From Malacoraja senta (lineage: Eukaryota): DNA of 64,000 bases. Below are positions 1 to 64,000 of the stretch, in pieces. How positions within the stretch are numbered: the first letter of the stretch is position 1; every line of letters starts with the position of its first letter. The notes below the pieces were generated by a model. That model was given only the letters and a program-made list of their open reading frames with translations, was not told the DNA's origin and ran no database searches. The position numbers and the translations under genes are program-made. The stretch is taken from contig CM075989.1 in NCBI GenBank assembly GCA_038087875.1, positions 22,260,001 through 22,324,000 on the forward strand. The letters run 5' to 3'.

Positions 1-435
1 AACACATGCTATTCAGTGCTCAGTGAATATAAAATCTGGTAATAAATCTGCCAGGCATATTTTTACAGATGCTGATAAATCATTTGCATCAGTAAAATAA
101 ATGAGTACAGTCGTTCCTTAATCTACATGAAAGAGGCAAATAGATCCCCAGCAAGTAAATATTTTGCAATGGGATTAAATAGTTCTGTGTTTCTGTGCAT
201 CACATAATCGATCTTCAATAAAACAATGTAATGTACAAAGACCATGAATTTTGTTCAGGGTCCTGCATGCATCTCATGCACAACTGCATGGATGATCAAG
301 ACCACTCGTTCAATTGCATCCGTCTCCTGACGGCTCCAGGTCCTAATTTGCACTCTTGTGTGTGACTGCACTGTCCACAGGTTGTACATGAAGAAGCTTT
401 CACGTTTGAGAAGCCAACCTCTATATGATTTCATG

Positions 436-20260: not shown

Positions 20261-20961
20261 CACAATAGACAATAGGTGTAGGAGGAGGCCATTCGGCCCT
20301 TCGAGCCAGAACCGCCATTCAATGTGATCATGGCTGATCATCCCCAATCAGTACCCCCATTCCTGCCTTTTCCCTGTATATCCTCTGACTCCCCTATCTT
20401 TAAGAGCCCTATCTAGCTCTCTCTTGAAAGTATCGAGAGAACCGGCCTCCACCGCCCTCTGAGGCAGAGAATTCCACAGACTCACAACTCTCTGTGAGAA
20501 AAAGGGTTTTCTCGTCTCCATTCTAAATGGCTTACTCCTTATTCTTAAACTGTGGCCCCTGGTTCTGGACTCCCCCAACATCGGGAACATGTTTCCTGCC
20601 TCCAGCGTGTCCAAACCCTTAATAATCTTATATGTTTCAATAAGATAACCTCTCATCCTTCTAAACTCCAGAGTGTACAAGCCCAGCTGCTCCATTCTCT
20701 CAGCATATGACAGTCCCGCCATCCCGGGAATTAACCTTGTAAACTGACGCTGCACTCCCTCAATAGCAAGAATGTCCTTCCTCAAATTAGGGGACCAAAA
20801 CTGCACACAATACTCCGGGTGTGGTCTCACTAGGGCTCTGTACAACTGCAGAAGGACCTCTTTGCTCCTATACTCGACTCCTCTTGTTATAAAGGCCAAC
20901 ATGCCATTCGCTTTCTTCACTGCCTGCTGTACCTGCATGCTTACTTTCATAGACTGATGAA
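20261..20961 (-). mobile_element. CR1 LINE 3' fragment (family C) with a 200-aa open ORF2 C-terminus
   Basis: ORF 20348-20950: KKANGMLAFI...LYRALVRPHPEYCVQFWSP...RVVSLWNSLP; tail (ATTGTCT)n. Confidence 0.9.
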
Positions 20962-21485
20962 CAAGGGCACATTTGGAATATTGTGTTCAGTTTGGGTCTC
21001 CATGTTACAGGACAGATGTTAGTAAGCTGGATAGGGTGCAGAGAAGATTAACGAGGATGTTACCAGGACTCGATGGCCTAAGTTATAGAGAGTGGTTGGG
21101 CAGGCAAGAACTTTATTCATCGGAGTGCAGGAGGCTGAGTGATGAATGTAGAGAGGTGTATAAGATCATGGGTGAATGCACTGTCTTTTACTCAGTATAG
21201 GGAAATCAAGATCCAAGGGACATAGGTTTAAGATGAGATGAGAAAAAATTAATAGGAACCTAAGGGGCAACTTTCTTAATGCAAAGAGTGGTAGATGTAT
21301 GGAACAAGCAGCCGGAGGAGTGGTTGAGGCAGGTACTATCACAAAGTTTAAAAAACTCTTGGGTTGGATAGGATTGGAGGGGTATGGGCCAAACGCATGC
21401 AGGTAGGACTAGTGATGGGGCATGTTGGTTGTCGTGGGCAAGTTGGGCTGAAGGAGCTGTTTCCACATTTCTTGACTCTATGCCT
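20962..21485 (+). mobile_element. CR1 LINE 3' fragment (family A); its upstream part lies at about 20149-20260
   Basis: EYCVQFGSPCYRTDVSKLDRVQRRLTRMLPGL; continuous with 20149-20260 once the nested copy is removed. Confidence 0.8.
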
Positions 21486-29490: not shown

Positions 29491-29715
29491 ACCTGGATAG
29501 GTGAAAGGTAAGTCCTATCATGAGGAAGGTTTCTGGGAGGCTCTTGCCAGAGGGATGATAGGGAGATTGCAGGAACGAGAGTTAGGAGGGTTTAATTTTC
29601 ATCAACGGAACAACAAAATTCTTACTTGCTGCAGCTTAAGAGGCCTGGAAATGCAACAACACATAGGTAAATATTTCAATGGTTCAATGGTTCTTCATTG
29701 TCTCATGTACTGACG

Positions 29716-30082
29716 TATACGATTGTTAAGGGCTTGGACACACTAGAGGCAGGAAACATGTTCCCGATGTTGGGGGAGTCCAGAACCAGGAGCCACAGTT
29801 TAAGAATAAGGAGTAAGCCATTTAGAATGGAGACGAGGAAACACTTTTTCTCACAGAGAGTGGTGAGTCTGTGGAATTCTCTGCCTCAGAGGGCGGTGGA
29901 GGCAGGTTCTTTGGATGCTTTCAAGAGAGAGCTAGATAGCGCTCTTAAAGATAGCAGAGTCAGGGGATATGGGGAAAAGACAGGAACGGGGTACTGATTG
30001 GGGATGATCAGCCATGATCACATTGAATGGCGGTGCTGGCTCGAAGGGCCAAATGGCCTGCTCCTGCACCTATTGTCTATTG
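29716..30082 (+). mobile_element. CR1 3' fragment (family C, young)
   Basis: KGLDTLEAGNMFPMLGESRTR...GYGEKTGTGY*, nearly identical to 20261-20620 and 58829-59028. Confidence 0.9.
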
Positions 30083-30231
30083 TATAGTGAAATTCTTCTT
30101 TTGCGTACAGTTCATTAAAGTATTGCCATTCCTAAGCACAATTGCCGATTAGTAAAAAAGTGCTTAGAAATAGTCCACTGAGATCGCATGCAAGAGTCTC
30201 CAGGTTTTGGCGTCATTTTTAATGTCCATTT

Positions 30232-42945: not shown

Positions 42946-43366
42946 CTAATATCCCTTTTATTTCCCATTACGTTCTCCTATTCAATCTGAAAGACATCAT
43001 CATCATCATTCAAGCTCAGAAGAGTCATCAGATTTATTTACAATATTAGTCAAGAGTTAAGAGTGTTTTATTTGTCATATGTCCCAGATGGAACAATGAA
43101 ATTCTTGCTTGCAGCAGCACAACAGAATATGTAAACTGTGAACAATATAATGAATGAGAAAGAACCATTCTACCACAAAGAACCAAAAATATTAAGCAGA
43201 TGTTGAAAGATGACACATAATTCACACAATTCTTTGAGCAGTTTGGAAAATAATGAATTGCTAAAATTCTGTGCCATTCTCAGAAGCTTTGACACAAAAT
43301 GCTGGAGTAACTCGTCGGGACAGGCAGCATCTCTGGAGAGAAGGAATGGATGATGTTTTGGGTCTA

Positions 43367-43503
43367 CTTCTTCTTGCGTATGGCATGCACAACCTAAAGT
43401 TGTAAGACAACTTGTTCCGTTTGATCTTCTGTTTGTGCACGCCGGGTTGATTGCATTCGTTGAAACAGGGTGGACCACGTGAAGGTTGCAATCTCCCACC
43501 CCC
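43367..43503 (-). mobile_element. 137-bp non-autonomous retroposon (Ingi/Vingi-like ends) with 12-bp TSD
   Basis: ATGTTTTGGGTC at 43353-43364 and 43504-43515; minus strand starts GGGGGTGGGAG and ends GCCATACGCAAGAAGAAG. Confidence 0.75.
43449..43502 (-). ncRNA. HDV-like (CPEB3-type) self-cleaving ribozyme, minimal, with vestigial P4
   Basis: GGGGUGG(P1) GA GAUUGCA(P2) ACC(P3) UUCACGU(L3) GGU(P3') CCACCCU(P1') G UUUCAA CGAA(J4/2) UGCAAUC(P2'); all helices fully paired, G1-U wobble. Confidence 0.85.
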
Positions 43504-45319
43504 ATGTTTTGGGTCAAGACCCTTCTTCAGATATGGTCAGGGGAGAGTGAGACAGAGATAAAGAAGGATAAGGTGTGAAAGATGAGACGTTAAAGGGGAC
43601 GAAGTTCAAGTAAAATGTAGAATAGATCATTGTTAGCTGGGGGAAGGTGACAACGAAGCATGTAAAGATAAAAATGTAACCAAGGGAACAGTCAGACTGG
43701 TCGGAGTACTAGGATGGGGGAGGAATGGAAAGAGGGAAAGCAATGGTTACTTGAAGTTAGAGAAGTCAATATTCATCCCGCTGGAGTGTAAGGTGCCCAA
43801 GTGAAATATGAGGTGCTGTTCCTCCAATTTGCGCTGGGCCTCACTCTGACAATGGAGGAGGCCCAGGACAGAAAGGTCAGTGTGGGAATGGGAGGGGGAG
43901 ATAAAGTGTTTAGCAACCGGGAGATCAGGTAGCTTTAAGCGGACTGAGCGGAGGTGTTCAGCGAAACAATCGCCGAGCCTGCGCTTGGTCTCGCCGATAT
44001 ATAGGAGTCCACACCTGGAACAATGGATACAGTGGGGTATTTCATCTTCATGGAGTCTTACCTTTTGCCATAAAACAGATAGATAAATAAATATACATAC
44101 GACAGACACTCTCTGAAATATGGGTCAACGTCTCTCCACATCACCGTCTATATCTCTCGTTTCCCTTATCCCTAACCAGTCTGAAGAAGGGTCTCGACCC
44201 GAAACATCACCCATTCCTTCTCTCCAGAGATGCTGCCTGTCCCGCTGAGTTACTCCAGCTGGAATATCTCACTAGATATTCTATGTAAATATGTTATGAA
44301 TCTTTTCCTGGCAAGATGGACAAAACGTATTCAACAAACTATCTCTATCCATTGGCTTTTTTTAGTGCATGACTTGTATATTAATGACATTCACATCAGA
44401 GAACAAACCCGAAACATCTTAAAGATATTTGACATTTCAGTAATTGGTGAGAAATTCCTTAACGCTATGATATATAATATATTGTCACTGCAAACTGACT
44501 GGTTACTTCTTATCAAACTGGAACTACTCCAAGACACATTTGTGTACTGTCTTACTTTCTGACATGGAATGAGCAATTTTCTTAGCCAAGCAGTTTAACA
44601 GAGTGACATTGTATATTGCAATAGTTTGGTCTAATTAGAGTTGCACATGAAAAAGATATAATACAGAGATTTCATAGTTTGATGCTTAACAAGAGCCCTG
44701 TCTCAGTCATAGGGTCTAATGTCACTAATATGATTTGTCCTGCCAGATTTAATAAGATTCATTTCAATCTGTCTTGGATACATGGCAACAGATTTCAATA
44801 TTTTATATTTCCCGTCAGAAGTACTTGTGAAATCAAAACCATTATTTTAGAGAAATATGCAAATCACTGGGACCTGAGTACGTACATAATAAGATGAATG
44901 ATTTCATGTAATGTGAATAGTAATAGGATTTCTTGCTTTATTATATACCAGATATGCATGGAATATACTGCACTGTTATTTGCTTGGGAGCGTGCTTTGA
45001 AGGTAACGCATTTTTCATGCAATTATGCATATTCCTTATGCCATTGGGAGATAATATGCATGAAAAATGTTAGAACAGGTTTTTTTTCCATAACTGCACT
45101 TATGCACCATGGAAGATATCAGAACAAGTTAAGATTAATGCTAATAGAAAACAAAAATTGAATGTTATAGCTTTGTCCAAATTGCATTTGGTTCATAAAA
45201 TGTTAAGGACCTGAGGATAAGCAATTTCTAAATGTAACAACATTCCAATAGAAAGTATTGACGTTCTATTTTATAACACTTTCAATGGAAATTACTGAAC
45301 ATGCTCTACTATTCAGTTT

Positions 45320-48610: not shown

Positions 48611-48895
48611 GACTGCCTTTATGGAGTTCTGTAACATGTGTTTTAGTGCTTGTACACAGACCGGTGAATGTCCTCACTTCACCTCCAGCTGTCCCTCAGT
48701 GTTGGAATCCCAATGGATGTGGAGTGGTGCATAGGCTCACAGATGACAATACACACAGGTGTACAATGGTCCAGCCACGAGTCAAGAGTGTTTTATTGTC
48801 ATGTGTTCCTGTTAGAACAATGACATTCTTACTTGCTGCAACACAACAGAATATGGAAACTTAGTACACTGTAAAGAATATAATAAACAAGAAAA

Positions 48896-49051
48896 ATATA
48901 TACACACACATACATAGACACACACATAGACACATATACATACACATACACAGGTAGACACATACATACACACACACACACATAGATATACACACACACT
49001 CACACACATAGACACATATACATACACACACACACACACAGATAGACACAT

Positions 49052-49122
<71 letters not shown>

Positions 49123-49219
49123 TACATACACACACACAGATAGACACATATACATACACACACACGCACACACACACACACACACACACACGCACGCACG
49201 CACACACACACACACAGAC

Positions 49220-49252
<33 letters not shown>

Positions 49253-49289
49253 TAGATATACACACGCACACACACACACATAGATATAC

Positions 49290-49330
<41 letters not shown>

Positions 49331-49393
49331 CACATACACACACACACACACACACATAGACACATATACATACATGTACGCACACACAGATAG

Positions 49394-49434
<41 letters not shown>

Positions 49435-49467
49435 CACATATACATACACGTACGCACACACAGATAG

Positions 49468-49500
<33 letters not shown>

Positions 49501-49560
49501 TATATTATATGCACATATATATGTACTGTACATATATATATATATATATATATGGATACA
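48896..49560. repeat. Compound (CA)n/(TA)n microsatellite
   Basis: About 660 bp of CA runs punctuated by CATAGA/CATATA units. Confidence 0.95.
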
Positions 49561-49652
49561 CAAACAAAAACAAACAAACAGTATTGCAAAAAGGCAAAAC
49601 CAATGCCCCCAAGTCTATGTAGTTCAGAGCTTATTGGAGGTTGTAATGTTTA

Positions 49653-50153
49653 TTTTTTATTTTTTTATTTCTTTTATTAGAAGTATTTTACATTACAGTA
49701 ATCTGCAATAACGTAAATTTATACAGTTCTTGTACCACTTCTGTTTTTCTACTTTAATAGAAAGAAAGGATAGAAAAAGCTAGCAAAGATAGTCAGTGAG
49801 TGAATGAAAGTGGTCCAGGAACACACATGTGAACCTAAACCACAAGAAGTAGTTAAAGAAGAAAAGAAAAAAAGAGAAACAAAGAAAATAAGATAGGACA
49901 ATATGAAAGGGATGCACCTACTTCTTATCTTTACTCGCCAGGTCCTAAAACCATTTATTATCAACATTTTGTTGCACCCTATGTTTGTAATAAGTCGATA
50001 TATGGAGACCAAATCTTTTGGAATTGGTCTTGTTTACCTGCTAGGAGGAATCTCATATCTTCTAGATGTAACAATTCCGACATATTAGAAGTCCACATTT
50101 TTATTGTTGGTGTAGGAGCATTTTTCCAAAATTTCAGTATCAGTTTTTTTGCC
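49653..50153 (-). mobile_element. L1-clade LINE 3' end with A-rich tail and 17-bp TSD
   Basis: GGAGGTTGTAATGTTTA at 49636-49652 and 50154-50170; minus translation AKKLILKFWKNAPTPTIKMWTSNMSELLHLEDMRFLLAGKQDQFQKIWSPYIDLLQT* resembles fish L1 ORF2 termini. Confidence 0.8.
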
Positions 50154-62625: not shown

Positions 62626-62869
62626 TTAGTTTAGTTTAGAAGTACAGCGCGGAAACAGGTACTTTGGCCCACCGCGTCCGCGCCGACCAGCGATCCCCGC
62701 TCACTAAAGCTATCCTACACACACAAGGGATAATTTACAATTATGCTAAGCCAATTAACCTACAAACCTGTACATCTTTGGAGTGTGGGAGGAAACCCGT
62801 AGACTGGATTGAAACCGGGTCTTGGGCACTGCAAGGCAGCAACTCTACCGCTGTACCAATGTGCTGCCC
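62626..62869 (-). mobile_element. V-SINE with internal deletion
   Basis: Tail, V-domain and head present. Confidence 0.8.
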
Positions 62870-63003
62870 ATTCATTACATACCTTGAAATATCAAAGAGC
62901 AATCCATAAATACCCAGGTTATTTGATCAGAGAATCACAGGATGCCTCTGCTCAGGGAGTGGCCCTCGTCAGACTTGTTGGTGGAGCTCCACGCAAGTTT
63001 ATC

Positions 63004-64000
63004 ATGGAGAAAGGGCGTAGGGGAAGGAGACGCACCGCAGGTAAAACCCAAGTTCCTGAGGGTAGCGGGCATCAATTAGAGGAGTCAGTGGCAGCGAGGC
63101 CATTAACTCCCGTTGCTGTCGAAAGTGCCGTTATACCGCCGGAGGCGGGGCGCAAGGCAGGACAAAAGTCGGCCCGACCAGTAGACTCCGATGAGTCAGA
63201 CCCGGAGGAATACCCTCCTCAGGCAGAAAATATAATGGCTGCTAGGGTCGCGAGTTTGGAACTTCTGATGGGGAAAATGATTTATAAAGAACCCCCACAG
63301 GAGGATTTCAGTCCGTGTTGGCCTATGGAGGATATAGCACAGGGGGTGCCTTGGATGGGACAGGCACAAGGATGGCCTACAGGAGAGCCATCAGGAATGC
63401 CTGTGCAGAAACAATACAGTGGTTGGCCTACAGGAGAGCCAGTGCCCGAAATGCCAGCAAAAAGGCAGTATATGTGTTGGCCTACCGGAGAGCTAGTACT
63501 AGAAATGCCTGAACAAAGGCAGTACAAACGTTGGGTGAGAGATGTGCCAACACCGACAATGGCTAAAGAAAAACAAATGAAGCGTTGGCCTAGAATTGAG
63601 CCAGCGCCAGCAGCACCTGAAACAGGGCTGCCTATCCGTGGGCCTCCAGGAGAGCCCGCGCAGGGGGAATCTGGCAGAGACCTTACTATGCAACGGCCAA
63701 TTGAAGGGCCAGGGCTAGACTTACCTGAAACAGGGGAGCCAGAAATTTCCCATCAAGAAGAGGAACATCTAGACTCAGATGATGAATTGTATGAGGACCA
63801 GAGCCCATTATCAGAGGTCAAAGTTCCAGGGCTGGCACAAAAGGTTGCTGTTCCCAGAGTAACAGGGGAACCTTTGAGAGAGAAAATAGCAATGACTATA
63901 AATTATCTGCTCTCACATCAGCTCCAGGAATTAACTATGGATGAGACTGTTAAAAAATATGAGACCCCGGCAAATTGTGAACTGCTAGCAGTCCCAGCGG
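63004..64000 (+). CDS. DIRS-type tyrosine-recombinase retrotransposon ORF1 (gag-like), open to window end
   Basis: Stop-free 332 codons from ATG 63004 (MEKGRRGRRRTAG...); ends TGEPLREKIAMTINYLLSHQLQELTMDETVKKYETPANCELLAVPA, resembling the KYxxPxNCxxLxVPxVNxxIW motif of metazoan DIRS ORF1. Confidence 0.7.
   Translation, partial: MEKGRRGRRRTAGKTQVPEGSGHQLEESVAARPLTPVAVESAVIPPEAGRKAGQKSARPVDSDESDPEEYPPQAENIMAARVASLELLMGKMIYKEPPQEDFSPCWPMEDIAQGVPWMGQAQGWPTGEPSGMPVQKQYSGWPTGEPVPEMPAKRQYMCWPTGELVLEMPEQRQYKRWVRDVPTPTMAKEKQMKRWPRIEPAPAAPETGLPIRGPPGEPAQGESGRDLTMQRPIEGPGLDLPETGEPEISHQEEEHLDSDDELYEDQSPLSEVKVPGLAQKVAVPRVTGEPLREKIAMTINYLLSHQLQELTMDETVKKYETPANCELLAVPA

Follow-up and report, generated by a model that had tools for sequence, protein, structure and literature searches.

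What kind of element is the short insertion on the minus strand of the window analysed here (a stretch of 64,000 nucleotides), and how could so small a sequence spread? A first-pass annotation, made from the letters alone, had described it as a ribozyme-headed, SINE-like insert of 137 bp with a 12-bp target-site duplication and a resemblance to non-autonomous Vingi elements.

The element is inserted into an abundant host repeat

The insertion and its surroundings comprise the following features.

43504..43515, minus strand: target-site duplication upstream of the element's 5' end (exact 12-mer repeat; single at empty paralogous sites)
43353..43364, minus strand: target-site duplication downstream of the tail (exact 12-mer repeat)
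43291..43530, minus strand: host repeat interrupted by the element (47 other copies; minimal hammerhead-like core, 8 intact by pattern)

The 12-mer at 43353-43364 recurs exactly at 43504-43515, as annotated, and the match extends on neither side. Between the two duplications lie 139 nt rather than 137, with the element running on the minus strand from 43503 to 43365; the element proper is 138 nt. The insert consists of one extra G, a 54-nt ribozyme fold and 84 nt of body and tail, which agrees with the earlier description of a ribozyme plus about 80 nt. Exact non-microsatellite repeats of at least 12 bases spaced 100-300 nt apart occur ten times in the window, in a count that leaves out the CA-repeat block at 48700-49700, and so a 12-bp duplication alone is not beyond chance. 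The insertion is instead shown by the flanks, which are the two halves of an older repeat, and by empty paralogous sites: the insert is absent from 47/47 other listed copies of that repeat, about two thirds of which (by eye) continue uninterrupted into the right-flank sequence.

The element itself occurs only once within the window. The host repeat (43291-43530) is very abundant, with about 47 other sites, often arranged as inverted pairs, and the element sits in the stem II loop of its hammerhead-like core. One ribozyme fold is in this way nested inside another on the same strand, an HDV-like element within a hammerhead-like host repeat. The host core is probably of Penelope type. Minimal type I hammerheads have been described in Penelope-like elements (PMC7761336), which fits the core seen here.

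No Vingi-type ORF fragment or autonomous partner was found within the window. Among its 176 unmasked frames there was no convincing host gene able to supply read-through transcription, and two sub-threshold Pfam matches were treated as noise. The window also contains a 399-codon open frame at 62803-63999 (plus strand) that runs off its end and has no Pfam match; its last 40 residues may resemble a DIRS-type Gag motif. LINE 3' fragments, at 20348-20986 (minus strand), 20262-20635 and 29713-30083, are 92% alike and presumably CR1-like. A repeat of about 300 bp has more than 15 copies across the window, and a long compound CA microsatellite block occupies 48800-49500.

The element begins with a P4-less HDV-like ribozyme fold

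The first 54 nt of the element proper can be drawn as follows.

43449..43502, minus strand: P4-less HDV-like (CPEB3-type) ribozyme fold, 54 nt (descriptor scan, weak Rfam CPEB3 alignment, family 5' ends, compensatory changes in related heads)
43502-43496 with 43473-43467, minus strand: P1, a G1.U wobble plus 6 bp
43493-43487 with 43455-43449, minus strand: P2, 7 bp
43486-43484 with 43476-43474, minus strand: P3, 3 bp
43483-43477, minus strand: L3, 7 nt, UUCACGU
43466, minus strand: G of P1.1, one pair
43464-43460, minus strand: stub replacing P4, 5 nt
43459, minus strand: predicted catalytic C, first base of J4/2 (CGAA)
43503..43503, minus strand: extra G at -1, probably untemplated and atypical of the family (50/360 junctions in sequencing run X2, 47/326 in run X23)

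The head has the nested double pseudoknot P1/P2/P3/P1.1 of HDV-like ribozymes, with a 7-bp P1, a G1.Y pair and a 2-nt J1/2, and both the conserved L3 and the catalytic C that opens J4/2 are present. The P4 helix is absent, which fits the minimal HDV-like subclass. A descriptor of the HDV fold, composed after the sequence had been seen, picked out one place in the window, with G1 at 43502 on the minus strand, whether L3 was strict or relaxed; 60 random strands of 128 kb contained no match. No Rfam family reached its gathering score anywhere in the window, and a search of 1.3 kb returned none at E<=1. A search of 91 nt gave weak alignments on exactly the head stretch, to CPEB3 (15.4 bits, E 0.05) and to HDV-F-prausnitzii (15.9 bits, E 0.34). 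The gathering cut-off of the CPEB3 model RF00622 is 35 bits, so that the window head lies below it at 15.4, with the related metagenome heads L117 and L070 above. From this fold we infer that the head would self-cleave 5' of G1.

A structured body and an (AAG)n tail follow the head

Two features make up the remainder of the element.

43382..43443, minus strand: body, with a long-range stem (43443-43433 with 43392-43382) and an enclosed 7-bp hairpin (43413-43407 with 43403-43397)
43365..43381, minus strand: 3' tail, a motif resembling CATACG followed by (AAG)n (about 2 nt shared with the duplication; 14/16 nt match to a related element's tail)

The body folds with a minimum free energy of -21.3 kcal/mol (z -2.05; 8/200 shuffles as good), compared with z -0.55 for the opposite strand. 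Body variants common in the family fall in the small loop and the linkers; one betters the stem and two break a stem pair. The structure is a candidate recognition site for a borrowed reverse transcriptase. In the tail, the fourth AAG repeat of the window copy carries a private substitution at 43366, differing there from about 95% of family depth, and the loose 3' ends of the family run on as more AAG repeats. The annotated tail is accordingly to be read as (AAG)n; the odd tail base and the fifth G (-1) are both private to the window copy.

Simple patterns for an A box or B box had no match in the element, in line with the annotated absence of tRNA or 5S boxes, and the element lacks the tRNA, 5S or 7SL head and internal boxes that mark a Pol III SINE. 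Its sole ATG comes some 20 nt before the 3' end, leaving no usable ORF, again as annotated.

Family copies mostly start at the predicted cleavage site

We asked where other copies begin, using 23 listed sequencing runs, four of which were examined in detail (X1, X2, X13 and X23, the last being poly(A) RNA-seq). The element or part of it is contained in 20/23 runs, and at least half of its words in 18, which carry eight coded organism labels and come from ten studies; X19 and X20 hold fewer than five of its words each. Across the 23 runs, the run index listed no RNA run as a holder of the element. Copies were recovered as 9586, 6625 and 10292 contigs in X1, X2 and X13 and as 775 poly(A) RNA reads in X23, summed contig depth not being taken as copy number. 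With thousands of contigs in each of three runs, the single-copy status that the first-pass annotation had named as fatal to its reading does not apply.

Among the 24 loose-end rows listed, of 558, 5' junctions at 43502 numbered 476 in X1, 310 in X2, 428 in X13 and 279 in X23. This total of 1493 at G1 compares with 191 at 43501 (88, 44 and 59) and 97 at 43503, among the rows listed. The loose letters across junction flanks agree at only 0.34-0.43 and so come from unrelated loci, which means that each run contains several hundred insertions or more that start at the predicted cleavage site. Depth drops about 100-fold immediately beyond G1. Ragged 5' ends running into a longer element, the other outcome that the first-pass annotation had named as refuting it, are not seen either: unrelated flanks join mostly at 43502, and copies do not run on in the 5' direction. 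In the three non-RNA runs the plurality consensus of the flanks has TT and, after it, a run of A at a distance of 11-19 nt from the junction; this weakly suggests a modal duplication of about 12 bp and a nick at a pyrimidine/purine site. T is the plurality base at -1 in the host family; in the window copy that T belongs to the duplication.

The head is variable among these copies. Among the variants listed, four exceed 10% in X1 and all keep the fold; they affect J1/2, a P1 pair (U-A to U.G), the stub that replaces P4 and the nucleotide following the catalytic C. At the catalytic C itself, about 4-5% of the depth of the three contig runs carries another base, much as at the other CpG sites (about 5% decay). 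At 43430-43433 all four runs show the junction to a family subtype whose linker differs and is slightly longer, and X23 also has 8-nt deletions at 43406 and 43425. We had considered the loose ends at 43430-43433 as a junction to a longer element, but their consensus, among the 24 of 558 rows listed, is that slightly longer variant of the same body; a rarer long form may still exist.

In the RNA run X23, the rows listed include no pile-up of molecule ends at G1, and 279 reads continue past it into the upstream flank, a weak but real sign that many transcribed copies are uncut. These crossing reads are mostly 80-95% alike to the element, and a poly(A) library captures short 5'-OH RNA poorly. First mates in the head divide about 250:360 between plus and minus, in a library whose strandedness is not on record.

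Similar heads precede APE-RT proteins in metagenomes

An exact 26-nt scan of metagenomes returned no match. A degenerate pattern with just four fixed parts (the G-run, L3, J4/2 and the end of P1) and no pairing requirement matched at least 117 loci. Among the matches listed, 116 loci gave 63 distinct heads: P3 is fully paired in 30 of these (3.3 expected), and 20/63 make all six free (unconstrained) pairs, in nine combinations, although many of the 63 are copies of one family and the compensatory changes are not independent events. An APE N-terminus is present within 400 nt in 38/63 folding loci and in 0/30 non-folding ones, again among the matches listed; these 93 loci have at least 330 nt downstream, and some repeat one insertion (41 distinct flanks).

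One of these elements, L053, starts at G1, closes with an (AAG)n tail and measures 3261 nt; it spans APE, RT and the C-terminus. Two shorter members of the L053 family, L056 (558 nt) and L010 (335 nt), keep both ends and have lost internal sequence. The window head matches the L053-family head at 30/39 nt. The tails match at 14/16 nt, largely in the AAG repeat, with 6/2000 shuffles as good; minus that repeat, the tail comparison with the L053 family gave no significant alignment. The body (positions 55-121) had no match in the 117 listed loci. Base -1 in the L053-related family is T in 31/41 flanks.

Six homologues of 1029-1052 aa have APE and RT domains and lack RNase H; five of them also show a weak zinc finger. 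Vingi elements are described as having a single ORF with APE and RT, no RNase H and a length of about 3.1-3.5 kb (PMC13708176), a layout shared by the metagenome elements (single ORF, about 3.3 kb, APE and RT, no RNase H). From layout and head type, we regard the metagenome proteins as Vingi-like. Named matches to the homologues came from a tunicate, bony fishes and Anolis (the Anolis protein, among the nearest of them, at 36% over 87%), and a PDB search gave weak R2 matches only.

Several observations from the same loci stand apart. In L005, L008, L016, L036, L062, L066 and L079, which belong to the autonomous-type family, no stop codon interrupts the frame that leads from G1 across the ribozyme to the APE domain; the ribozyme there may share its bases with coding sequence or promote initiation without a cap. 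Another family, in which L3 is unchanged, P1 carries compensatory changes and long G-runs lie upstream, accounts for 16 loci among the matches listed (L015, L025, L030, L031, L034, L038, L041, L050, L057, L072, L083, L086, L098, L099, L112 and L116), with no APE ORF downstream in those long enough to check. L092 carries HDV-like folds on opposite strands 200 nt apart, at 7-87 (plus) and 286-370 (minus), scoring 36.9 bits on Rfam HDV and 31.2 bits on CPEB3, both below cut-off; the arrangement resembles viroid-like or ambisense circular RNAs.

Vingi 5' ends resemble the CPEB3 ribozyme

The supplement of PMC5786205 prints the 5' ends of four Repbase families, Vingi-2_Gav, Vingi-4_Crp, Vingi-2_SPur and Vingi-1_BF. 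By eye, an HDV-like ribozyme with P4 can be folded from the gharial end and from the amphioxus end, the window L3 is exact in the gharial and sea-urchin ends, and the printed ends have the post-P1 GU and J4/2 of the window head. Vingi-1_BF matches the ribozyme of the drz-Bflo-2 construct, which is described as self-cleaving (PMC11662937), at 60/62 nt. Together with the Vingi-like APE-RT elements, which have the same head type and a similar tail, these printed ends uphold the Vingi resemblance that the first-pass annotation had offered.

The human CPEB3 ribozyme (oligos in PMC5984629) matches Vingi-2_Gav by eye at 51/54 nt outside the P4 tip, and the match covers helix positions that vary freely among other heads. 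A non-mammalian-looking metagenome sequence, L117 (290-379), has nearly the same head, which aligns at 66.5 bits to the mammalian CPEB3 model, against a cut-off of 35; the sequence downstream is too short to show an ORF. This near identity suggests a Vingi origin of the CPEB3 ribozyme. CPEB3-related ribozymes have been reported in sea urchin, lancelet and lamprey, with spread by retrotransposition suspected (PMC8256844). An identification of drz-Spur-3 with a Vingi head was rejected, the oligos in PMC5984629 being a different sequence.

A model for the spread of the element

The copies form a dispersed multicopy family with fixed G1 starts, an (AAG)n tail, target duplication and no coding capacity. 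The starts, tail and duplication together point to spread by target-primed reverse transcription with an enzyme that the element does not itself encode. In our judgement it is probably a non-autonomous derivative of a Vingi (Ingi-related) LINE, of which only the 5' ribozyme and the 3' end are kept. A copy would be transcribed by read-through from outside, and the P4-less HDV-like fold would then cut 5' of G1, leaving a uniform, uncapped and tightly folded 5' end. A Vingi APE-RT protein would bind the body hairpin and the tail, nick the target at a pyrimidine/purine junction (TT/AAAA-like; TC/AAGA at the window copy) and copy the RNA, and a second nick about 12 nt off would give the duplication. 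As its cut lies on its own upstream side, the ribozyme would be retained by new copies, which would need no promoter. We also infer some bearing from the base at -1, which shows no excess of G (14%, two runs) of the sort that a capped template might give. For the label SINE-like, non-autonomous LINE derivative is the better name.

Some of the data sit uneasily with this model: the lack of an end pile-up at G1 in X23 and its 279 uncut reads, a window head below the Rfam gathering cut-off, a tail match that is mostly AAG repeat, a window with no autonomous partner and no convincing host gene for read-through, and the T bias at -1, which perhaps reflects a target preference or an element that starts one base before the cleavage site. 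The RNA reads and the T bias would suit the main rival reading, in which the ancestry is the same but the head acts chiefly as a Pol II promoter inside the element, with starts at G1 or immediately before it, like Pr77 in L1Tc and NARTc, and the P4-less fold cleaves weakly or not at all and is protective or protein-binding. Pr77 is both promoter and ribozyme, with a transcript start at +1 either way (PMC3185411, PMC5814959), and some well-folded trypanosome SIDER heads are inactive in vitro (PMC4035085). We consider such a promoter role unlikely, though worth keeping in view: G at -1 is not in excess, the G1.U pair, L3, P1.1 and catalytic C are all retained (the C being altered in about 4-5% of depth), and P4-less HDV-like ribozymes do cleave (PMC10879173).

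The unmatched body (55-121, against 117 listed loci) and the shortness of the tail similarity would also suit a composite, in which a Vingi-type head had joined the tail of another LINE clade, such as RTE, whose enzyme moved the element; exchange of tails among SINEs is documented (PMC5786205). This seems improbable, as the sole full-length element with this head type ends in the same motif plus (AAG)n and T at -1 is common to both families. That the feature is a single-copy or chance occurrence, or the ragged end of a longer element, might be read from its one copy in the window and the ten 12-mer repeats at such spacing; we give this essentially no weight, since it is already refuted by thousands of contigs per run, the roughly 100-fold fall in depth and hundreds of unrelated flanks at one position.

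Returning to the Vingi derivation, we cautiously favour a broader reading in three parts held jointly: that the Vingi clade is headed by CPEB3-type self-cleaving ribozymes, that the 138-nt family is run by an active P4-less ribozyme, and that the mammalian CPEB3 ribozyme descends, by domestication, from the 5' end of a Vingi-2-like element inserted long ago. PMC5786205, in the portion consulted, lists six ribozyme-bearing LINE clades without Vingi among them, names RTE, Ingi, Vingi and R2 as the sole makers of bipartite non-autonomous LINEs, and leaves the ribozyme link open. If the broader reading is true, all four of these clades would be ribozyme-headed, and the bias would be explained.

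Discussion

Bipartite non-autonomous Vingi elements, such as the Vingi-1_EE derivatives, are already on record (Kojima et al. 2011, as cited in PMC5786205), and the window element is like them in having no ORF, no Pol III head, a Vingi-like 5' end, a short microsatellite tail and a duplication; it differs from the four printed Vingi heads, all with P4, in having none. RIME, NARTc and SIDER of trypanosomatids (ingi, L1Tc clade) are likewise short and non-autonomous, with an HDV-like head that there cleaves 5' of +1 and that has the 3-bp P3 and 1-2-bp P1.1 of the window head. Their head, however, is 77 nt long with P4 and has proven promoter activity, whereas that of the window element is 54 nt, and L1Tc possesses RNase H and ends in poly(A), where the window family has an (AAG)n tail and an animal-type host. 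R2 SIDEs are also internally deleted, ribozyme-processed LINE passengers (PMC6765202), but are site-specific for 28S rDNA and use an RLE enzyme, in contrast to the dispersed, APE-type window family. True SINEs with tRNA, 5S or 7SL heads (for example SINE2-1_AMi, with a Vingi 5' part) are similarly short, non-coding and LINE-dependent, but the window element has no small-RNA head and no A or B box.

Among ribozymes, the mammalian CPEB3 ribozyme (RF00622) shares the L3, G1.U, post-P1 GU and J4/2 of the window head, but it is single-copy, intronic and equipped with P4, and its helix sequences are unlike those of the window head. Minimal HDV-like and theta ribozymes replace P4 with a short loop, as does the window head. 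These ribozymes are described as nearly 99% confined to tailed phages, with the function of the minimal forms open (PMC10879173); in contrast to these phage-based forms, the window fold heads a high-copy retroposon.

The kind of element is already known from RIME, NARTc and the R2 SIDEs. In the literature searched, a set lying outside Kojima 2011, Ruminski 2011, Webb 2009, Repbase, Dfam and patents, which may hold the family or the link, we found no report of a ribozyme in Vingi, no Vingi link in work on the origin of the CPEB3 ribozyme, and no match to the element's motif strings. Judged by sequence comparison and within that literature, three things appear to be new: a ribozyme in Vingi, a P4-less ribozyme heading an abundant animal-type retroposon, and the near identity of CPEB3 and Vingi.

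Minimal P4-less HDV-like ribozymes, reported so far mostly from phages, would thereby be given a definite role in a genome of animal type, where each run offers hundreds of natural variants or more for comparison. Vingi has been the one bipartite-LINE clade with no reported ribozyme, and the gap in PMC5786205, where sampling bias is left as a possible source of the ribozyme link, would be filled; the origin of the CPEB3 ribozyme likewise becomes testable. Vingi proteins have been used for RNA-templated gene insertion (PMC13708176), and this natural 138-nt passenger shows how little cis RNA may suffice for insertion based on them.
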